From assembly GCA_963711565.1 (NCBI GenBank), contig CAVQEQ010000003.1, positions 1,280,001 to 1,344,000 of the forward strand: DNA of 64,000 nucleotides, given 5' to 3'. A program made the position numbers and the translations under genes. The notes under the pieces were generated by a model. It was given only the letters and a program-made list of their open reading frames with translations. It ran no database searches and was not told where the DNA came from. This DNA comes from an uncultured delta proteobacterium. GTDB lineage: Bacteria > Desulfobacterota > Binatia > Binatales > Binataceae. This document shows, one piece after another, positions 5,297 to 39,953 of the stretch (the stretch's first letter is position 1; every line of letters begins with the position of its first letter).

Positions 5297-8149
5297 ATGC
5301 GTGAAGGTCATTTCGGCGGAAGATCTCGCTTGCGCAGCCTTCTGGCATTCTTGTCTCTTGCTTCGTTAGCGTCGCTTGGGATCGCATCTCCTTCCGCCCG
5401 CGCCACCACTTACACCCAGTCAGTTGTCTATTCGTTCTGCAGTCAGGGCGGTACCAACTGCACCGACGGCGCCCTCCCTGCCGCCAGCCTGGTGCAAGCG
5501 CTCGACGGCAATTTCTATGGCACAACACTGGCCGGAGGTGCCGTCGGTCCGATAACCGGTGGCGCCGGCACTGTTTTCCAGGTAACCCCTTCCGGCACCC
5601 GTACCACGCTCTACACTTTTTGCAGCCAGGGCGGAACGAGCTGCACGGACGGCACGGTCCCCAGGGTTCTGATCGAAGGTCCGGACGGCAACTTCTACGG
5701 CACCACGGAAGAAGGCGGTACGAATGCATCCGGGACGGTTTTCAGAATCACTTCCACAGGTACTCTGACGACCCTTTATAATTTCTGCAGCGTTGGCGGC
5801 AGTTCATGCACAGACGGCATCGACCCCCTCGGCGGCTTGACGCTCGGCAGTGACGGCAACTTCTACGGCACCACTGAACGAGGCGGCAGCAACGGGGGCG
5901 GCACGATCTACATGCTCACCTCATCCGGCGTCCTTTCGACCCTGTACAATTTCTGCAGTCAGGGCGGCGCCAGTTGCACCGACGGCGAGAATCCTTATGC
6001 GACCCTCGTCCAGGGCAGCGACGGCTATTTCTACGGCACCACCTACGCAGGTGGCGCCGATAGCGAAGGCACCGTCTTCAAGATGTCCCCCTCGCCATCT
6101 TTCACGTTTACGTCCCTGTATAGCTTCTGCAGCCTGGGCGGATCCGCCTGCACCGACGGCAAGAATCCTCAAGGCGTCGCAGGACTCGTCGAGGGCACCG
6201 ACGAGAACTTCTACGGTACTACTGAGGCCGGAGGCACCAGCACCACAGTTTCAGCCGGCACCTTTTTCAAGATCACCTCGTCAGGGAGCCTCACGACGCT
6301 GTACAGCTTTTGCAGTATCGGCAGCAGGTGCGCCGACGGCGCCGAGCCAATGGGTGTGATTGAGGGCACCGATCTGAACTTTTACGGAACAACTGCCCTC
6401 TTCGGTAGTGCAATCGGTACTGCCTTTTCGGTCTCCGCCTCCGGAAGTTTGACTACGATCTACAACTTCTGCAGCCGCGAGCAGAACTCCATACCTTGCA
6501 CCGATGGCGGCATGCCTGAGGCCGCACTGATACAGGGCAGCGACGGCAACTTCTACGGCGACACGAATGCGGGAGGAAACGGAGATCCGGCGGCAAATTC
6601 CGGAGCGAGCGGAGGTGTAGCATTCAAACTGGCTGCGTCAGCCACGCTCGCCGCGCCGATCCAGTTGTCACTCTCCAACTCGCAAATTGCGCCGGGCAAT
6701 CCGGTTACGCTCTCCTGGAATGTGTTCCCCGCGCTCTCTACCACGCAGCAACAGTGCTACGCGTTCGTGCAAGGCGGCGCGACCGGGGCGGGAACATGGA
6801 CCGGCCAGCAGATCGGCACGCTATCGGCCGCAACCTATTCCGGTTCTGCGTCGATCACGCCGACTGCTAATGGAACCTATACCTATGCGCTGACTTGCGG
6901 CGGCACCGAGTCGGGCTTCGCGACCCTTACCGTAGCATCCGCCACGCCGACTCCTACAGCCACCGTGACTGCCACCGCAACTCCGGCCGCCACTGCAACC
7001 TTTACCGCAACCGCGACTCCGACTGCCACAGCTACGGCGACAGCGACCGCCACTGCAACTGCCACGCCGACCGCAACAGCCACTGCGACTGTCACGTCAA
7101 CTGCGACGGCCACTGCGACAGCCACGGCGACCGCCACTGCCACGCCGACCGTAACCGCTACCGCAACGCCGACGGCGACGCCGACTACCTCGATGACCGT
7201 GACTGCTTCGCTTCCCTTCGGCAATGTTGCGGACGGACAGACGGTGACGAAGAATCTGACCGTCCATAACACCGGCAGGACCAATTCGCTGGTCATCTCG
7301 AGCGCGACCCCGTCCGACCCTGAGTATGCCCTCAGCGGTACCGGGACGTGCGGCGCGATTCCGGTCACGGTCGCGCCCGCGACATCGTGCACATTCGGAG
7401 TTTCGTTCACGCCGAATGCGACCGGCGCGCACCCTGCATCCCTGACGTTATCCGACAACGCCGCCACCAGTCCGCAGCATGTGAGCCTCACCAGCACCGG
7501 CATCGTCGATCTGACAACCTCGAAGAGCAGCCTGGTATTCGGCGACGTGAAGTTCGGCGCCAAGGGCACCAAGTCATTCACTGTGACCAATCATCAAACC
7601 CAGCCAGTGAGCCTCAGTGAAAGTCTCAGCGACGCCAACGCCTCTGACTTCTCGATGAGCGGCACCTGCACGGGCACGCTCGCCGCCAAGACGGCCTGTA
7701 CGACTACAGTGACCTTCGTGCCGGGGGCGCTGGGAGCGGAATCGGCGACACTGACGGTCAGCGACAGTCCCGATCCGCTAAGTCCGTACATGGTCGCGCT
7801 CACGACCGGCCCGACGATCCCGGCGACGATCACACCGGTCACGCTCGCGTACGGCACGCTGACGGCCCGGACATCGCCGAAGACCAAGGACGTTACTGTA
7901 ACCAACAAGTCGGCATTTTCCCTGCCCGTCAGCGAGAGCATCGTCAGCAGCGCGAACTCCGGCGACTTTACGGTGACCGGCGGCACCTGCGGCACGATGG
8001 TGTCGGCCAACTCATCATGCACGATAGCGGTGAGGTTCACGCCGACCGGCGGCGGATCGCCGGAGAGCGCAAGCATAGCGGTGACGATCGGCAGCGATCC
8101 GACCAGTCCCCGCAACATTACTCTCACCGGCACCGGCCCCGTGAACTGA
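5297..8149 (+). CDS. Secreted tandem-repeat protein (choice-of-anchor GloVer-type repeats) with Thr/Ala linker and three choice-of-anchor D/ASH-like Ig domains
   Basis: Signal peptide, seven FCS-x4-7-C[TA]DG...DGNFYGTT..GG repeats, an (AT)n/TPT linker, and C-terminal FGNV/FGDV/YGTL...C...C...F[TV]P modules. Confidence 0.85.
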   Translation: MREGHFGGRSRLRSLLAFLSLASLASLGIASPSARATTYTQSVVYSFCSQGGTNCTDGALPAASLVQALDGNFYGTTLAGGAVGPITGGAGTVFQVTPSGTRTTLYTFCSQGGTSCTDGTVPRVLIEGPDGNFYGTTEEGGTNASGTVFRITSTGTLTTLYNFCSVGGSSCTDGIDPLGGLTLGSDGNFYGTTERGGSNGGGTIYMLTSSGVLSTLYNFCSQGGASCTDGENPYATLVQGSDGYFYGTTYAGGADSEGTVFKMSPSPSFTFTSLYSFCSLGGSACTDGKNPQGVAGLVEGTDENFYGTTEAGGTSTTVSAGTFFKITSSGSLTTLYSFCSIGSRCADGAEPMGVIEGTDLNFYGTTALFGSAIGTAFSVSASGSLTTIYNFCSREQNSIPCTDGGMPEAALIQGSDGNFYGDTNAGGNGDPAANSGASGGVAFKLAASATLAAPIQLSLSNSQIAPGNPVTLSWNVFPALSTTQQQCYAFVQGGATGAGTWTGQQIGTLSAATYSGSASITPTANGTYTYALTCGGTESGFATLTVASATPTPTATVTATATPAATATFTATATPTATATATATATATATPTATATATVTSTATATATATATATATPTVTATATPTATPTTSMTVTASLPFGNVADGQTVTKNLTVHNTGRTNSLVISSATPSDPEYALSGTGTCGAIPVTVAPATSCTFGVSFTPNATGAHPASLTLSDNAATSPQHVSLTSTGIVDLTTSKSSLVFGDVKFGAKGTKSFTVTNHQTQPVSLSESLSDANASDFSMSGTCTGTLAAKTACTTTVTFVPGALGAESATLTVSDSPDPLSPYMVALTTGPTIPATITPVTLAYGTLTARTSPKTKDVTVTNKSAFSLPVSESIVSSANSGDFTVTGGTCGTMVSANSSCTIAVRFTPTGGGSPESASIAVTIGSDPTSPRNITLTGTGPVN

Positions 8150-8300
8150 GGCTTCGATTACTGAAGCTGAGCGTCAACAAGTCGCCCCCGTCCATGATGC
8201 TCGCGTGCGGAAAATCATCAGCTAGCCGAAATTTCGCTTGACAAAACCTGGCGCGCCAAGCGGAATTGCTCGGGTGGGGAGAGGCGTGAGTCTGCGGGCG

Positions 8301-10790
8301 ATGGCCCGGTATTTTGCCCGGGGAATGGTGCGGCCCACGGTGCTGGCCGTACTCATCCTCCTGATTGGGTCCGCTGTCATCCTTCCGGTCGGCCATTCGC
8401 TCCGCGCCGGCGGTGCCAACACGATAACCGTCAATACGCTGCTTGATTCGAGCGTCGCGGGTGACGGCCTGTGCAGCTTGCGCGAGGCGATCGCCAATGC
8501 CAACGCCGAGTCGGATACCACCGCGGGCGATTGCGTGGCCGGCACCGGCAACGACACGATCGCCTTCAACCTGAGCGGAACGATCACGACTGCGAGCACA
8601 CTGCCCGCGATCGCGCACACCCTCGAAGTCGATGGCACCGGCCAGACGATCACTATTGATGGTGCCAGTACGCATGCAGTCCTCGTGAACTTCGCGGGCG
8701 CGCTCACATTGAACAACCTGACGATTGCCGACGGCAATTCGAGCGCCAACGGCGCAGGCGTAATCAACGACGGCAGCTTGACCGTCACCGCGTCGACCTT
8801 CCTTGCGAACACGGCAGTGGATGGCGGCGCCATCCTCAATTTCACCGGCGGCACATTGACCGTTACCAATTCCACCTTTTCGGGCAACGCAGCGGCCGCA
8901 GGCGGCGCTATCTACAGCGATCACGGCGGGACCGTCACCAACTGCACTTTCTCGAACAACAGTGCTACGGGCTCAGGCGCGGCAATCTTCGCCAATGGCG
9001 GCACGATCCAGATTGTGAACTCGATCCTGGCGAACAGCACCGGCACGAATTGCGGCTCGCAGAGCACCGGCGTCATCGGCAACGGCGGCTTCAATATCTC
9101 GGACGACGGTTCGTGCGATTTCGGGAGTAGCACCGGATTCAACGACGATACGCTCGGCGATAACGTCCTGCCGCTGCTCGACCCCGGCGGGCTGCAGAAT
9201 AACGGCGGATCGACTGAGACAATCGCGTTGCAACCTGACAGTCCGGCGATCGACGCGATCCCGATTGCCGATTGCCCGCCGACCGATCAGCGCGGCGATC
9301 CCCGGCCCGCCCCCGGCGATACCAGCGGCGGATGCGATATTGGCGCATTCGAATTGATGCAGCCCTCGCCGACGCCGACAGCGACAGCCACGGCGACGCC
9401 GACCGTCACAGCTACCGCCACCGCAACCGCAACCGTCACACCGACGCCCACGGCGACGAGCACTTCGACTCCTACGGCCACAGCAACCGCGACTGCTACA
9501 TCGACGGCGACGGTCACTCCCACGGCAACGGCGACGGCGACCGCAACGCCGACAGCGACTGTGACTGCTACGCCGACTGCCACCGCAACCGTGACTGCAA
9601 CGATTACGGCGACTCCGACTGCGTCGCCCACTCCCAAACCGCCGCCGCCGCCGAAACTCACCATCTCGCCCGCCTCGATTAGCTTCGGCAACGTCAAGAC
9701 GGGGAGCGCTCCGATCAAATCGATCACGCTTCACAACAAGAGCAAGACCAACGATCTGGTTACGGCGCCGGTTGTCAGCGGAGAATACTTCAGCCTCGCG
9801 AGCAACGGTTGCACGGCCGGAGTGCCGCCGGACGGGACCTGCAAGATCGGCGTGAGCTTTGCCCCTCTGGCCAAGGGCAAGAAGTTCACCGGCAGCCTGA
9901 CCTTTACCGATCAATCGAAGAAGAACAGTCACGAGATAAAGCTCAAGGGCAAAGGTGTCAGCACTCCGACGCCGAAGCCGACGCCCACGCCAACGTCCAC
10001 ACCGACGCCATCCGCGACCGTCACGCCGACCGGCACCGTGACTACGACGCCGAGTCCCACGATTACCCTCGGCATCACTCCGAGTGCCACGGCAACCAGC
10101 AGCGCGTCGCCGACCGCGACGGCAACTTCGACGACGCTCGCGACACCGACCCCGACTGCTACGTCAACCGCGACATATACGCTCACCAGTATTTCGGAAA
10201 CGATTTCGGGCTTTGTCGATTTGAACAACCCAGGCGCCACGCCCAACCCGGTTCAGACGACGCAGGCAGTCGCGGTCTCGACGCCTTCATTCACCGACAG
10301 CATCAGCGTGAGCGACACTAACGTGGTTATATCGGGATCGGCGTCCGCGTCGCAGAATTCTGAGGCCGAAGGCACGACGATTTCAGCCGATGAATCCGCG
10401 ACCGCCGACGCGGATCTATCGCTGTGTCCCGGGCCAACATCGCTGTGCACCGCCGAGAACCAGGGCATCACGGAGCTCGACGCGGAATTTTGCATTGCGT
10501 CGGACACGACCTATTCGCTGACTGGTTCGGTCCAAGCGACCGCAAGTGAGGATCTCGGCAACATCTCCGGCGTCGGAGTTGTGAGCCTGGAAACCGTCGG
10601 CCCGTCGCCGATCTCCCTGGTCAGTGAGCAGGCCACCAATGGCGAAGACGTTCCGATATCGTTGAGCCTGCCGCTGTCCGCGGGGTGCTACGACATGAGC
10701 GTCGAGGTATTTGCCGACGCGCTCCCCAGTGGAACAGGCGCCGGCAGCGTATCGGCAAGCTGCAACGTCCTGCTGAGTCCGTCACCGTAG
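8301..10790 (+). CDS. CSLREA-domain secreted protein with beta-helix, choice-of-anchor Q and D domains, and two Thr/Pro linkers
   Basis: ITVNTLLD...GLCSLREAIANAN, GGAI repeats, LQNNGG.T.TIAL..SPAID...TDQRG...CDIGAFE. Start uncertain (8238, 8301 or 8325). Confidence 0.85.
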   Translation: MARYFARGMVRPTVLAVLILLIGSAVILPVGHSLRAGGANTITVNTLLDSSVAGDGLCSLREAIANANAESDTTAGDCVAGTGNDTIAFNLSGTITTASTLPAIAHTLEVDGTGQTITIDGASTHAVLVNFAGALTLNNLTIADGNSSANGAGVINDGSLTVTASTFLANTAVDGGAILNFTGGTLTVTNSTFSGNAAAAGGAIYSDHGGTVTNCTFSNNSATGSGAAIFANGGTIQIVNSILANSTGTNCGSQSTGVIGNGGFNISDDGSCDFGSSTGFNDDTLGDNVLPLLDPGGLQNNGGSTETIALQPDSPAIDAIPIADCPPTDQRGDPRPAPGDTSGGCDIGAFELMQPSPTPTATATATPTVTATATATATVTPTPTATSTSTPTATATATATSTATVTPTATATATATPTATVTATPTATATVTATITATPTASPTPKPPPPPKLTISPASISFGNVKTGSAPIKSITLHNKSKTNDLVTAPVVSGEYFSLASNGCTAGVPPDGTCKIGVSFAPLAKGKKFTGSLTFTDQSKKNSHEIKLKGKGVSTPTPKPTPTPTSTPTPSATVTPTGTVTTTPSPTITLGITPSATATSSASPTATATSTTLATPTPTATSTATYTLTSISETISGFVDLNNPGATPNPVQTTQAVAVSTPSFTDSISVSDTNVVISGSASASQNSEAEGTTISADESATADADLSLCPGPTSLCTAENQGITELDAEFCIASDTTYSLTGSVQATASEDLGNISGVGVVSLETVGPSPISLVSEQATNGEDVPISLSLPLSAGCYDMSVEVFADALPSGTGAGSVSASCNVLLSPSP

Positions 10791-27877: not shown

Positions 27878-28267
27878 GTGGCGCTCGGAAAAGCGGAGAC
27901 GCTCAAGCCGGTCGTATGGGTTCGAAGCAGCAAAGACGACCTGAAAAAGTTTCCGCGAACCGCACAGTCGCATCTGGGATTCGCCCTCAAAGTCGCGCAG
28001 AGCGGAGGAAAGCATCCCGACGCAAAGCCGATGAACGGTTTCGGCGGCGCCAGCGTGATTGAGATTGTCGAGGATTACGATAGCGATACGTATCGAGCGG
28101 TTTACACGGTGAAGTTTGCCGAGGCGATCTATGTCCTCCACGCATTTCAAAAGAAGTCGAATTCGGGCATTGCCACGACCAAACGCGATCTCCATTTGAT
28201 AGAAGAAAGATTAAGGCGCGCGAAGGAATTGCACGCCCTGAGCGTTTACGACAAGGCGAAGCGATGA
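27878..28267 (+). CDS. Type II TA toxin, RelE/ParE (Gp49/HigB-like)
   Basis: KPVVWVRSSKDDLKKFP, AKPM.GFGGA.V.EI and YRAVYTVKF..AIYVLHAFQKKS. Confidence 0.9.
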   Translation: MALGKAETLKPVVWVRSSKDDLKKFPRTAQSHLGFALKVAQSGGKHPDAKPMNGFGGASVIEIVEDYDSDTYRAVYTVKFAEAIYVLHAFQKKSNSGIATTKRDLHLIEERLRRAKELHALSVYDKAKR

Positions 28268-28593
28268 GCAAATCTATCGATTACGAAGTAAGCAGCGGGA
28301 ACGTCTTTCGCGATCTTGGGCTGCCAGATGCGGATGAGCTCGACATCAAGGCGAACCTCGCGATCAAGATCGGCAAAATCATTGCGCAGCGCGGACTCAG
28401 CCAAATCAAAGCGGCGGCGGTACTGGGAATCGATCAGCCTAAAGTGTCCGCTATCGTCCGCGGGCGCCTGGAAAAATTCTCTATCGAGCGGCTCTGCCAA
28501 TTCCTGACCCGACTCGGCTGCGACGTGAACATCCGCGTGCAGGAAAAGCGCAAGTCAGCGCGAGGCAGAATGCGAATTCAGATTGCCAGCTGA
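28264..28593 (+). CDS. XRE-family HTH antitoxin (HigA-like)
   Basis: SSGNVFRDLGL and GLSQ..AA..LGIDQPKVS...RGRL..FS.ERL. ATGA overlap with the toxin gene. Confidence 0.9.
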   Translation: MSKSIDYEVSSGNVFRDLGLPDADELDIKANLAIKIGKIIAQRGLSQIKAAAVLGIDQPKVSAIVRGRLEKFSIERLCQFLTRLGCDVNIRVQEKRKSARGRMRIQIAS

Positions 28594-29292: not shown

Positions 29293-32080
<2,788 letters not shown>

Positions 32081-32230
32081 CTCAAAATCTATCGCTCCCC
32101 CGCCCATCACCACATCCTCCCCACCTCAGTTACACGCGCGTTAAGCCCGCATTTAGTTCCACTTGCCCTGTCGTTGCGGTCGCCACAGCTTTCAAACAAT
32201 CTTGGCTTGCCAAGCTGAGTCGTGGGCGAC

Positions 32231-32919: not shown

Positions 32920-32935
32920 GGAATACACTTGATGG

Positions 32936-32992
32936 AATGTGAAGCCCGTGGTGGGTTTCACGCTTCCTTCGGCAGGGGTGACCCCTGCACCC
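32936..32992. repeat. Dispersed two-hairpin repeat, family 3, copy 3
   Basis: ggcaggggtgacccctgcaccc is identical to copy 2, and the first hairpin shows compensatory changes. Confidence 0.8.
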
Positions 32993-33088
32993 GGTAAAAG
33001 GTGTAAACGGAGGCGGCGCGGGTTACGTCATATACTCTGAATCCGCGCACCGGCCCGATTCGTACTGTATGTAGTCGAGAAATCTGTC

Positions 33089-36073: not shown

Positions 36074-36739
36074 TCACTCCGGGACATTGACCCAGGCAAC
36101 CCGCACCTTCGGCGCGCCGGTTACTGGATCGCGAACATGGGCCTCGCCGACCGGCTCGAAGCTCTCAGCGCGAAGAATCTCCGCTGCCGACTCGGCTTCG
36201 AGCGCCGGCTTTCCGAGCAGAAAAGCGCCGGGTCTGTAGCAGCTCAATATGAGACGCCCGCCGGGTTTGAGGTACAGGCGAGCAATGCGGCTGAGCATCG
36301 CTCCTCGACTCTGAATCGGCACTACATCTGTCAACGCGGTGACATAGTCAAATCGAATCGGCGGCTCGAACGTCATCACATTCCCGGTCCAGATCCGCGT
36401 CGCCCAATGCGGAAGCCGCTTGCGCGCGCGCTCCGCAATCCGGTTCGAAAGCTCGAGTCCGTAGGGTTCGATGCGATGGCCTTGCTCGGCGACCCACGTC
36501 GTCAGAGTTTCCATCAACAGGCCGTTCGCACAGCCAACGTCCAGCCATATGCCTACCCGATCGAAAGCGCTGGCGATCACGCGCCGCTTCGCTTCCCAGC
36601 TCGTCATGTCCTCCCCCCTCGAGCCCGAGCCGCCAAAGACATCGCCTCGCTCATCCGCCGAGACGTAATAGTCCTCGAGCAGCGCGCGAATGCGCTCGTA
36701 ATATTCGTCGTCAGAATTGGAACGATCAGGATCAGACAT
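36074..36739 (-). CDS. Class I SAM-dependent methyltransferase
   Basis: WLDVGCANG, YGLELS and LKPGGRLIL. AGGAG RBS upstream. Confidence 0.85.
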   Translation of the reverse strand: MSDPDRSNSDDEYYERIRALLEDYYVSADERGDVFGGSGSRGEDMTSWEAKRRVIASAFDRVGIWLDVGCANGLLMETLTTWVAEQGHRIEPYGLELSNRIAERARKRLPHWATRIWTGNVMTFEPPIRFDYVTALTDVVPIQSRGAMLSRIARLYLKPGGRLILSCYRPGAFLLGKPALEAESAAEILRAESFEPVGEAHVRDPVTGAPKVRVAWVNVPE

Positions 36740-36766
36740 CGCGGATCGTGCTCCTATGGACCGGGC

Positions 36767-37771
36767 TCAATTTTCTGGAGCTTCCCGAGGGAGCTTTGCC
36801 AGCGCGCAGTCGGCGCACCAGAAATCCGGCCCCTTGCCGCCCAATTTCTGAATTTGCTCCCGTAAACCAGCCGTCAGGCCCGTCGCAGCGGCTTTCAGGT
36901 CCGGCGGCGGGGATGATGCCGCGGCAGTTGAGTCTCCACGCTGGGATGACCACGTTCCTTCCGGCGCGGTAAGGTAAACGCGGCCGCCATTCCATTGAAT
37001 CTGGTAATTCTCATCCGGGTCCCACTTACCTGCGGGCAACGCCGTCGATTCGCAGGCACCCTGGAGTCCGCATACCACGATACTTGCGCGCTTGGACTGA
37101 TTATCTTGCGCCGCCACGGCAACCTCTTTACTGTCCTCGGACCACGCAGGCTTGGTGAGGAGGGTGACTTTGACGCCTTTGGCTGGATACACGCGCCGGT
37201 AGTCGATATCCAGTTCCGGCTCCCTCCCGTATAGCGGGGTCCAGTGCGGCATTCCGCCCTCGACGGCGGCGTGTTCGCCGTCGGGAGAAAAGACGGGGCC
37301 GCCTGTATCGTCGAGGTAGTCCGTCAATTCTTCGCCAGTTTTTGTGTCAAAGACGAGTGTGTCATCGCTCGAAGGATTGACGTTTCCGGCTGCCGCAATC
37401 GTGTCCGCGGTCAACCACTGAATCCGCTCGATATAGTCAAATGGGTACGCCTCGCCGGAGCTAACGGGACCGATCAGAATATCCGAGAGCGTCCGGCCCG
37501 TCTCAGAGTCGATTACCACCAAGTTATCTATAGCAACTGCGTGGTCGATCTTGCGGAGAAAGGCTATCTTGGTTCCGTCCCTGGACCACACCAGAGGGCC
37601 TTTGGGAATCCCGTCGTGGGTCAGCTGTCGCGGCTCTCCGTCAACGCCGATCGTGAAGAGGTCGCCGTCTTTATAGTAAACCGCCTTGAGGTCCGCACCT
37701 TGGGCGAAGGTGTACCCAACACCGACGGCAAACGTGAGCAGCAATGCGAAAACTTTGATTCCGATCTTCAT
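36767..37771 (-). CDS. Secreted TolB-like beta-propeller protein, paralog A (candidate immunity protein)
   Basis: Signal peptide MKIGIKVFALLLTFAVGVGYTFA, blade motifs WSRDGTKIAF, FSPDGEH and WSEDSKEVA, C-terminal FWCADC, strong AAGGAGG RBS. Confidence 0.8.
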   Translation of the reverse strand: MKIGIKVFALLLTFAVGVGYTFAQGADLKAVYYKDGDLFTIGVDGEPRQLTHDGIPKGPLVWSRDGTKIAFLRKIDHAVAIDNLVVIDSETGRTLSDILIGPVSSGEAYPFDYIERIQWLTADTIAAAGNVNPSSDDTLVFDTKTGEELTDYLDDTGGPVFSPDGEHAAVEGGMPHWTPLYGREPELDIDYRRVYPAKGVKVTLLTKPAWSEDSKEVAVAAQDNQSKRASIVVCGLQGACESTALPAGKWDPDENYQIQWNGGRVYLTAPEGTWSSQRGDSTAAASSPPPDLKAAATGLTAGLREQIQKLGGKGPDFWCADCALAKLPREAPEN

Positions 37772-37782
37772 GATTCTCCTCC

Positions 37783-37977
37783 TTATTGCACCGCGCTCCC
37801 GGGGCAGGTCGGCAAAGCAGGGGTGCACGCGCCAACAGCCATGACGTTATCGTAGCCAGCGCAGACGGCTTTGCCGACGCCCTCGTAGAGATCGAGCCGG
37901 TAGCCTTTGACACCATTGCCGGTGTCGTCGGTCCACATGTTGTCTTGTTCTTGACCATGCAGGCCGAGATCGACCAC
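37783..37977 (-). pseudogene. C-terminal fragment of a 3D (MltA-like) domain protein, copy A
   Basis: DDTGNGVKGYRLDLYEG matches the 3D-domain DTGxxxkGxriDly signature. The N-terminal AVD motif is absent, and the stop overlaps the next gene's RBS. Confidence 0.6.
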
Positions 37978-38053
37978 TGAACTATAGCAGGGGTGAGGGC
38001 CTCCAGGGCTAGCTAAGCGCGATTCCCGTCACGCTAGCTCCTATGGACCGGGC

Positions 38054-39064
38054 TCAATCTTCTGGAGCTTCCCGAGGGAGCTTTGCCAGCGCGCAGTCGG
38101 CGCACCAGAAATCCGGGTCCTTGCCGCCCAAGTTCTGAATTTGCTGCCGTAAACCAAAAGTCAGGCCCATCGCAACGCCTTTCCGGTCCAGCGGCGGGGA
38201 CGACGATGCCGCGGCAATCGAGTCTCCACGCCGGCAGGACCACGTCTTGTCTAACAGAAAAGCGTAGATGCGGCCGTCATTCCATTCAACCTGGAAACTG
38301 TCATCCGGTCCCCACTTTGCGTCGGCGGGCAACGCCGTCGATTCGCAGGCGCCCTTGAGTCCGCATACCACGATGCTTCTGTGCTTGGACTTATAATCTT
38401 CGACCACCACGGCAACTTCTTTGCTGTCGTCAGACCACGCAGGCTTCGAGAGCAGGGTGACATGGACGCCTTTGGCTGGATAGACGCGCTGGTACCCGAT
38501 GTCCAGTTCCGGCGCGCTCCCCCAATCCGGCGTCCAGTGCGGGGCGCCGGTCTCGGCGGCGGCGTGCTCGCCGTCGGGAGAAAAGACTGCGCCGCCGTCG
38601 TCGTCGATGTAATCTGCCAACTCCTTGCCCGTCCTGGCGTCGAAGACGAGGGTGTCATCGGTTGACGGATTGACGCTTCCGGCTGCCGCAATCGTGTCCG
38701 CGGTCAACCACTGAATCTGCTCGATATAGTCAAATACGTACCCCTCGCCGGAGCTAACGGGACCGATCAGAATATCCGAGAGCGTCCGGCCCGTCTCAGA
38801 GTCGATTACCACCAAGTTATCTATAGCAACTGCGTGGTCGATCTTGCGGAGAAAGGCTATCTTGGTTCCGTCCCTGGACCACACCTGAGGGCCTTTGGGA
38901 ATCCCGTCGTGGGTCAGCTGTCGCGGCTCTCCGTCAACGCCGATCGTGAAGAGGTCGCCGTCCTTATAGTAAACCGCCTTAATGCCTGCACCTTGGGCGA
39001 ACGAATGTCCAACGTTCGCGGCGAGCGTTAGCAGCAATGCGAAAAATGCGATTCCGATTTTCAT
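38054..39064 (-). CDS. Secreted TolB-like beta-propeller protein, paralog B (candidate immunity protein)
   Basis: Colinear paralog of 36767-37771 with the same motifs and an AAGGAGG RBS. Confidence 0.8.
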   Translation of the reverse strand: MKIGIAFFALLLTLAANVGHSFAQGAGIKAVYYKDGDLFTIGVDGEPRQLTHDGIPKGPQVWSRDGTKIAFLRKIDHAVAIDNLVVIDSETGRTLSDILIGPVSSGEGYVFDYIEQIQWLTADTIAAAGSVNPSTDDTLVFDARTGKELADYIDDDGGAVFSPDGEHAAAETGAPHWTPDWGSAPELDIGYQRVYPAKGVHVTLLSKPAWSDDSKEVAVVVEDYKSKHRSIVVCGLKGACESTALPADAKWGPDDSFQVEWNDGRIYAFLLDKTWSCRRGDSIAAASSSPPLDRKGVAMGLTFGLRQQIQNLGGKDPDFWCADCALAKLPREAPED

Positions 39065-39076
39065 GCTCTCCCCTCC

Positions 39077-39256
39077 TTATTGCACCGTGAGCGCGGGGCA
39101 GGTGTTCGTTCCGGAGCTGCACGCGCCCACAGCCATAGGGTTGGCGTTGGCGAATGAGCCAGCGCAGGCCGCCTTGCCCACGCCCTCGTAGAGATCGAGC
39201 CGGTATCCTGCGATACCATTGCCGGTGTCGTTGGTCCATATGTTGTCTTGTTCTGG
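39077..39256 (-). pseudogene. C-terminal fragment of a 3D domain protein, copy B
   Basis: EQDNIWTNDTGNGIAGYRLDLYEGVGKAACAG...MAVGAC...TCP..VQ is homologous to copy A. Confidence 0.6.
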
Positions 39257-39367
39257 AAAGCGCGGGCGATTACACGCCGTTTTCCTTCCCAGTCCTTCGA
39301 GCAGCGCGCGAATGCGCACGTAGTATTCGTCGTCAAAATTGGAACGATCAGGATCAGACATCGCGGA
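39257..39367 (-). pseudogene. Truncated, internally deleted duplicate of the methyltransferase 5' end
   Basis: MSDPDRSNFDDEYYVRIRALLE followed, in another frame, by WEGKRRVIARAF, versus intact MSDPDRSNSDDEYYERIRALLE...WEAKRRVIASAF. Confidence 0.85.
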
Positions 39368-39953
39368 GCGTCTTCGAGACCAGGAGCGTTTCGATGCCGC
39401 GCGAATCGCGGCGGCGCAGTACGAGTCCCGAATCGTCAATCTCGATTTCTTCGGCGTCGCCCATGCGCGGCTCGTAAATCCAGATGTGCGGATCGCTGCC
39501 GCGCTGGCGGCATGATTGTTTGCTGGTCGCGGCGACGAGTGTGTTCGGATCGATTGCCGCCACGCGCCCGGTCCATCGCGTCTGCTTGCGCTCGCGAACG
39601 TGCGCGATTATCAGCGCGCGAAAGATGACGAGGTCCGCATCGATTTCGCCATAGCGGCCAAGCTTGGCCGTCAAATCGTTGCGGCTGCCGCCCGTGCTGA
39701 TGTTGCCGCGGAGGAAATTGTCGGCTGACTCGTAGGTCGCGTTGCGAGTAAAGGGGCCGCGGTTGTAGCTCGCGACGACGCGCCTGACGAGACCGGCCTC
39801 GTCGAGCTCGGCTTCGACTTCGTACACGTTGGAGCCGCTCGCGGGACGCCGGACGCCGCGAATCAATCCCCAGGCGAGCGATTCACTCTCGACAGCTATC
39901 AACACGCCGGCTTTCCGGAGGTCGTAGCGGAACTCACCGTCGGCAATCAGCAT
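39354..39953 (-). CDS. Hypothetical beta-rich protein
   Basis: 199-aa ORF with GAGG RBS and host-like codon usage. Its stop overlaps the methyltransferase remnant start. Confidence 0.7.
   Translation of the reverse strand: MLIADGEFRYDLRKAGVLIAVESESLAWGLIRGVRRPASGSNVYEVEAELDEAGLVRRVVASYNRGPFTRNATYESADNFLRGNISTGGSRNDLTAKLGRYGEIDADLVIFRALIIAHVRERKQTRWTGRVAAIDPNTLVAATSKQSCRQRGSDPHIWIYEPRMGDAEEIEIDDSGLVLRRRDSRGIETLLVSKTLRDV

Follow-up and report, generated by a model that had tools for sequence, protein, structure and literature searches.

Putative orphan immunity genes beside stumps of an MltA-type lytic transglycosylase gene in an uncultured soil bacterium

Amidases and lysozyme-fold enzymes are known as effectors in effector-immunity pairs directed against peptidoglycan. 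Here, we analyse a stretch of 64,000 nucleotides (the window) from an uncultured Binataceae bacterium of the Desulfobacterota (GenBank assembly GCA_963711565.1, contig CAVQEQ010000003.1, positions 1,280,001 to 1,344,000), in which a tandem array at 36,750 to 39,256 sets short stumps ('tips') of a 3D/MltA-type enzyme gene in front of intact genes for putatively exported beta-propeller proteins. We regard the window propellers as probable orphan immunity genes of an uncharacterised pair that consists of a likely Sec-exported MltA-type lytic transglycosylase and its inhibitor. Statements about published systems below extend to the portions of the cited papers that served as sources.

In the Tse1/Tsi1 pair of Pseudomonas aeruginosa, the periplasmic Tsi1, which is propeller-like and resembles DPP-IV propellers, uses a conserved loop to plug the active site of a peptidoglycan hydrolase (PMC3391265), and the same loop-in-active-site geometry is predicted for an enzyme-propeller pair at our locus L024. 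However, Tse1 is an NlpC/P60 amidase delivered by a type VI secretion system (T6SS), whereas the full-length relatives of the tips (the parents) combine a signal-peptide-like start with an MltA fold; with its three sheets, Tsi1 is a fragment, unlike the propeller partner of about 310 residues, and is absent among the propeller fold matches listed, no direct comparison with it having been made. The Cdi, Rhs and MafB toxins share with the parents a C-terminal toxin-like domain, a partner gene directly downstream, varied N-termini, one N-terminus found with two C-termini (here at locus L060) and truncated tips beside intact partners, and MafB also has a signal peptide (PMC4436062). The orphan modules of those systems are whole toxic domains beside a full-length gene, whereas the window stump is non-viable and has no full gene. 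Tandem divergent immunity-like genes without a cognate effector are likewise found in the Bacteroidales AID and rAID systems (PMC12247911). In those arrays the immunity genes are unrelated to one another, and rAID includes a recombinase, whereas the window holds two homologous copies of one family, from soil rather than gut, with no recombinase seen adjoining and no T6SS link.

Among enzymes, the parents resemble the MltA/3D group (Escherichia coli MltA, Bacillus subtilis YuiC/Sps; PF06725) in three aligned aspartates and, by Foldseek, in fold. Unlike MltA they have a conserved cysteine set, an Ig-like stalk, varied N-termini, few lipobox-like starts and, nearly always, a dedicated partner gene behind them. 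Bdellovibrio Bd3285 offers a 3D-domain, MltA-like lytic transglycosylase that is used on the wall of another cell, the prey (PMC10127604); unlike the parents it is a monocistronic lipoprotein, and the words 'immunity' and 'inhibitor' are absent from the main text of that paper. Exported inhibitors guarding peptidoglycan, as proposed for the propeller, include Ivy, MliC and Brucella PhiA. Ivy and MliC inhibit MltA weakly or partly, with no binding detected (PMC10139938), PhiA targets SagA, and the source portions describe none of the three as a gene-coupled inhibitor of an MltA-fold enzyme. ABP toxins are secreted, but their immunity proteins are cytoplasmic (PMC13460014). A SleB-like T6SS effector is reported in PMC11148199, which, its supplementary effector datasets aside, mentions neither MltA nor a propeller, and the portions of PMC12419801 and PMC5821083 used here hold nothing on an enzyme-propeller pair. 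In the literature covered, largely without subscription papers and supplements, no effector-immunity pair with an MltA/3D-fold enzyme and no 3D/MltA-type effector with a propeller partner is described. The pair appears to follow the effector-immunity scheme, with some immunity copies standing as orphans, and it departs from both classical orphan toxin modules and T6SS effectors.

Anatomy of the array

The array consists of two direct-repeat units on the minus strand, spaced 1287-1303 nt apart and 84.9% identical across 1222 nt; the original prediction had recognised the tandem repeat and put the unit at 1.2 kb, for which we measure about 1.29 kb. Each unit holds a stump of about 55 codons of a 3D/MltA-type gene, assigned by profile and alignment, followed by an intact propeller gene. 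Tip 1 (about 39255-39077, minus strand, as are all features of the array) leads into propeller 1 (P0001, 336 aa, 38054..39064), the predicted inhibitor on the evidence of an AlphaFold2 (AF2) model and conservation, and tip 2 (37783..37957), with the same 5' edge, leads into propeller 2 (P0002, 334 aa, 36767..37771; open reading frame and alignment). As predicted, the stump motif reads W-T-x-DTGNG..GYRLDLYEGVGKA..C..C..TCP..VQ, and in both units the stump TAA overlaps an AAGGAGG ribosome-binding site (39072-39078 and 37778-37784). The junction from propeller 1 through the spacer to tip 2 is bridged by contigs of runs X1 and X5, which come from two separate studies, so the duplication is real and not an assembly artefact; X5 contigs also bridge both outer junctions. 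On the metagenome contig L023, a tip with the same 5' edge, a propeller and the 3' spacer stand behind a gene read as glnA-like. Hence, the window-type unit occurs at more than one site, and the spacer (37958..38053, the 3' flank of unit 1), which travels with the propeller at this unrelated site, belongs to the unit and not to tip 2. No integron attC-like site was seen in the spacer by eye.

The tips match Pfam 3D weakly (positions 31-60 of 72, E of about 0.0013, 19 bits, under the cut-off of 23.8) and the profile of the parent family strongly (positions 363-416 of 417, E 3e-22 and 3e-18), which upholds the 3D/MltA identity first proposed for them. They share 67% amino-acid identity. Tip 1 keeps three cysteines and the residues aligned to MltA D297 (39227-39229) and to the catalytic D308 (39194-39196; 37891-37893 in tip 2), and is without the FGMSCY strand and the D261 equivalent. 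Lacking this first aspartate and strand, the window tips, to judge by their sequence, cannot form the catalytic domain. Spanning only the last ~50 of ~275 core residues, they are too short for the truncated spare toxins that had been suggested, and hence are not alternative toxin domains. The ratio of nonsynonymous to synonymous substitution rates (dN/dS) is 0.68-0.85 in the tips (48 codons) compared with 0.36-0.49 in the propellers.

The AF2 model of propeller 1 is a beta-propeller (pLDDT 87.7) with the propellers of DPP-IV, TolB and eIF2A as nearest solved folds (best Z 15.4, root-mean-square deviation (rmsd) 3.5, 261 aligned), and fold and sequence agree with the predicted beta-propeller of about 335 aa with a C-terminal CxxC. 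The protein has a signal-peptide-like start, called from the sequence and an N-terminal helix without a SignalP-type tool, and conserved SVNPS and PH loops. TolB itself is defined by an N-terminal alpha/beta domain and a six-bladed propeller in a tol-pal locus. The window propeller has no TolB family match in Pfam or NCBIfam, a TM-score of ~0.33 to TolB and no adjoining tol-pal genes, and the ESM Atlas returned only unnamed or generic TolB/PD40 clusters. The two propellers are 79% identical, with a tract of 95-100% identity (about 38960-38680 in propeller 1 and the matching part of propeller 2) that is likely the product of gene conversion or a mosaic.

Parent enzymes and their partner genes

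Full-length 3D parents, the existence of which had been anticipated, number 103 among database relatives (95 + 8), and they are predicted to be MltA-type lytic transglycosylases, not MltA proper. Many begin with a signal-peptide-like start; behind it come an N-terminal module that varies between parents, a stalk of the Ig-like type and the 3D catalytic domain, which is rich in disulfides. Among 108 parents examined, 94 start with Met, 65 of these 94 show an early hydrophobic stretch by a crude test, and four of the 108 have a lipobox-like start by a crude pattern. The N-terminal modules of 71 parents sort into 20 clusters and contain domains such as TIG, Big and PKD. Pfam 3D is matched by 85 of 96 parents at E<=0.001, and five of nine locus-derived parents lie above its cut-off. 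The alignment of the family profile with E. coli MltA (2ae0; E 1.4e-4) spans D261, D297 and D308 (residue numbers counted along the alignment), the last being the catalytic residue of MltA (PMC4499186). Of 96 parents, 84 retain the D261 equivalent, 96 that of D297 and 95 that of D308, and the FGxSCY strand and five cysteines are invariant. For the AF2 model of a parent (pLDDT 92.9), all 12 Foldseek matches at E<=0.001 are MltA-family structures, with a whole-chain TM-score of ~0.3 and, for YuiC, an rmsd of 2.4 over 71 columns. Parents score 18-25 bits against the equivalog of MltA proper (NF008366), which has a cut-off of 242. An excess of periplasmic MltA lyses E. coli (PMC10139938).

Both searches place the propeller gene behind the enzyme gene. 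A search with the propeller alignment returned 53 loci, of which 34 were set aside as weak matches to propellers in general (E>=1e-6); the 19 kept, less one duplicate (L036) and four that start inside the propeller, leave 14 informative loci with upstream DNA. At 11 of these 14 distinct loci a 3D gene or stump lies directly upstream of the propeller, some of the 11 being close kin (L003/L004, L030/L032). From the enzyme side, a propeller lies downstream at all six enzyme-anchored loci that keep the catalytic half (6/6, the Ralstonia megaplasmid one weak); at a seventh, L064, the catalytic half is gone and so is the propeller. Producer genomes hold enzyme and propeller as a two-gene unit, the pairing that the original prediction had proposed. 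The T6SS or Rhs export link that it had also raised is not borne out: no Rhs, VgrG, PAAR or similar delivery domain was found by Pfam among the 96 aligned parents and seven of eight long forms, the host genome has no VipB, and no linked T6SS genes were seen, the flanks being short at most loci. One locus was found among viral contigs. Enzyme and propeller similarities correlate (Mantel rho 0.81, n = 12), a figure confounded by kinship and not counted as co-evolution. Three proteins (P0097, P0282 and P0283) were considered as true two-domain fusions; two of them keep an internal Met and a signal-like stretch and look like frameshift read-throughs, and the three are therefore treated as adjacency.

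Individual loci show further variants. At L064 (1420-2413, G459) the enzyme gene is cut before the catalytic domain, and the cut end is joined to what in L003 is the gene behind the pair. A distant 3D gene and a propeller-like gene lie between IS5 and IS66 on Ralstonia megaplasmids (L061, 6140-8559 of CP052083.1), with 66 matching records, all from Ralstonia and annotated as hypothetical. The parent at L020 (699-1927) is frameshifted within the core, with the downstream propeller open to the contig end, possibly an early stage of orphaning, or a sequencing error. Two propeller copies without a tip, L021 (436-540) and L035 (~9950-10000), have a similar upstream sequence of ~45 nt, which suggests a second type of extra copy. 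At L060, a second gene (6466-9105), which has the 387-aa N-terminus of the 3D gene, ends in a Cys-containing domain and is followed by a 249-aa signal-peptide-like gene, both without a Pfam match and together a candidate further toxin/immunity pair; a 298-aa open reading frame at 2036-2932, also without a Pfam match, consists mostly of CxxxC repeats after an RR-motif leader.

Predicted inhibition and the orphan copies

The original prediction had cast the propeller as the protein that neutralises the full-length enzyme, and the co-fold of the cognate L024 pair agrees with it. The interface score ipSAE was 0.85 (runs 0.85, 0.89 and 0.85), against 0.00 for the best of three controls; the ipSAE mark used is reached by 116 of 157 solved complexes and two of 215 mismatched pairs, a rough guide where, as here, the alignments are our own. 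At least 74% of contacts are shared between runs, with a partner pLDDT of at least 85. Among the lowest-error contacts are those that join enzyme D266 (the D308 equivalent), Y134 and A226 to propeller N133 and P134, which sets a conserved Asn-Pro loop on the catalytic Asp, and tip residues make up part of the interface. Across 106 propellers P134 is kept in 106, N133 in 96 and H177 in 103, and both window copies keep all three. The model supports binding, short of showing it, and the propeller very probably acts as an inhibitor of the parent enzyme. None of the three outcomes that the original prediction had named as refuting it clearly came about.

In a producer, enzyme and propeller would both cross the inner membrane by Sec, and the propeller would push its Asn-Pro loop onto the catalytic Asp of the enzyme; by blocking this residue, the loop would protect the producer's own wall. 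In the window lineage a deletion would have left the last ~55 codons of the enzyme gene, and the stumps likely persist because they hold the ribosome-binding site of the propeller. For the two unit copies, which stand at the 5' end of a methyltransferase gene, read-through together with translational coupling is a possible means of expression, and the orphan propellers would defend the host against the enzyme from neighbours.

The propellers are orphans, as no full-length enzyme was found in the host genome (94.9% complete) with tblastn, the family profile or Pfam 3D. Given that this genome holds only stumps of the enzyme gene, the propellers are likely orphan immunity against the enzyme of neighbours, and its three transglycosylase-domain penicillin-binding proteins mean that the host has a wall to protect. 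The propeller was not found in 60 relatives, nor in 164 other genomes of the family (0/164), and is patchy elsewhere (4/401 and 2/401 genomes in two other groups). The enzyme was not found with the family profile in 400 phylum genomes drawn, nor in the phage collection. A second, independent orphan tip with an intact propeller occurs at L066; this tip matches the L065 enzyme over residues 342-437 with 83% identity. At L060, neighbouring genes share 387 N-terminal residues (89% identity), have different C-terminal domains and are each followed by a different signal-peptide-like gene; by analogy, this C-terminal swap with change of partner is the pattern of polymorphic toxins. As in those toxins, a putative immunity gene lies directly downstream and one toxic domain sits on distinct N-termini. 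The reciprocal swap, one N-terminus with distinct C-termini, is seen in L060 only, and the host genome has stumps in place of complete alternative toxic domains beside a full-length gene. We hold it about evenly balanced whether the pair represents a new Sec-exported family of polymorphic antibacterial toxins, with an MltA-fold warhead and the first dedicated high-affinity protein inhibitor, which toxin-less soil bacteria collect and duplicate as mobile orphan immunity. If the propeller is a dedicated plug of the active site, it would serve both as a tool against MltA-class lytic transglycosylases and as a structural template for their inhibition. The orphan copies suggest that such conflict shapes the genomes of uncultured soil bacteria, and the lack of an injection-type delivery domain raises the question of how soil bacteria deliver wall-lytic enzymes.

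Several observations weigh against orphan immunity. The incompleteness of the host genome (94.9%) leaves room for a missed parent. The co-folded L024 propeller is not a window protein and is 53-54% identical to the window copies, which are without two loops that touch the enzyme in the model, and the first Asp is lost in 12 of 96 parents. Differences between the window propellers are not enriched at the predicted interface (9/48 interface and 55/263 other positions, P=0.85; P=0.089 for eight close homologues), which lends no support to a reading of the allelic variants of the original prediction as different in specificity. Three of the 14 propeller loci have no 3D gene upstream: L021 is a tandem second copy, L034 has 133 bp of unrelated upstream DNA and L035 is an N-terminal fragment. 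The purifying selection on the propellers may predate orphaning. Expression is indicated by one 222-nt contig of RNA run X20 that covers the spacer (weak, and possibly DNA carry-over), and no sigma-70 promoter was found for the array. No delivery apparatus turned up, and it is not obvious how an enzyme exported by Sec would enter the periplasm of another Gram-negative cell.

Of the alternatives, the one that survives best is that the pair serves to remodel the producer's own wall, as an autolysin with a safety catch and not as a weapon, and that the window cassettes are leftovers of a lost enzyme without any role in external protection. The predicted inhibition fits it equally well, the Brucella pair SagA/PhiA is a precedent, and many parents combine a signal-peptide-like start with Ig-like, TIG or PKD modules and not toxin-delivery domains; single low-depth contigs also hint at variants without tip 1 or the whole array, on which we do not rely. 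However, housekeeping enzymes are not usually so patchy or so varied at the N-terminus, the orphan state arose at least twice, in the window/L023 type and in L066, and left an intact propeller both times, the window carries the unit in two copies, and the L060 swap came with a change of partner. We consider this explanation unlikely. It is highly improbable that the tips are recombination cassettes that swap the 3' end and immunity partner of a full-length gene, in the manner of the orphan C-terminal modules of Cdi, Rhs and Maf. Three tips do share a 5' edge at the conserved NDTG motif, in frame and without stops, but one ancestral deletion would also account for that edge. Unchanged among tips are 12 of 15 family-conserved columns compared with 19 of 38 variable ones (P=0.065), and tip residues fall within the predicted interface; against this, a tip makes up less than one fifth of the core that carries catalysis and its exchange would therefore alter little, dN/dS of the tips is close to neutrality, and neither the host genome nor the 400 phylum genomes yielded the full-length gene. 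It is very improbable that the propeller, instead of inhibiting the enzyme that it binds, activates it, chaperones its export or serves as a TolB-like scaffold, since, although TolB and DPP-IV propellers are its nearest folds and a co-fold does not give the sign of an effect, the predicted contact is on the catalytic Asp and substrate-groove residues and an activator would be of no use in a genome without the enzyme.

Flanking genes and other features of the window

A direct repeat of 75 nt (36675-36749 and 39297-39371), which repeats the 5' end of the methyltransferase gene and which the original prediction did not mention, brackets the array of putative orphan immunity genes. The right copy (minus strand) overlaps the start of an intact class I S-adenosylmethionine-dependent methyltransferase gene (36074..36739, minus strand), the downstream flank, whose order with DUF1501 is kept in four congeners. 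Upstream, a partial copy of the methyltransferase 5' end (39255..39371, minus strand; start 39361), which includes the left copy of the repeat, has an internal deletion, with codons 1-22 and then about 48-60, and runs into tip 1, in frame in the window assembly. Translation of tip 1 as an in-frame methyltransferase chimera was considered and dropped, given that it depends on base 39296, which is missing in five of seven distinct runs (X1, X5, X6, X7 and X8; X13 and X20 have no piece covering this position). Without this base, the frame of the methyltransferase fragment is 99 aa long and ends on the propeller start; with the frame changed, those strains probably do not produce a 3D peptide from the tip, whereas the propeller would stay translationally coupled with or without the base. 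Joints for an empty site (36739 to 39369) and for a tip deletion (39085 to 39340) are each present in one low-depth contig beside the repeat and are not relied on.

The genes flanking the array encode the methyltransferase, an unknown open reading frame and an acetyl-CoA hydrolase. The unknown frame, on the upstream flank (39354..39953, minus strand, 199 aa), has no Pfam or NCBIfam family, and its stop overlaps the start of the methyltransferase fragment. In three congeners read further, an operon that reads as ABC-type transporter-like lies upstream of the methyltransferase in place of the array; the 199-aa frame replaces this operon and is not beside the methyltransferase there.

Elsewhere in the window, an intergenic element of ~70 nt at 32926-32996, similar to a repetitive extragenic palindrome (REP) or a miniature inverted-repeat transposable element (MITE), has 116 blastn matches (E<=1e-5) in its own genome and several copies in congeners too. 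A ribonucleotide-reductase-like gene (label from sequence) at 29293-32113 is spread over two open reading frames (29888-32113 and 29293-30432) that overlap and differ in frame, which may reflect a frameshift in the assembly. Finally, adjacent open reading frames of 129 and 109 aa at 27878-28593 resemble a RelE/HigB-type toxin and helix-turn-helix antitoxin pair.

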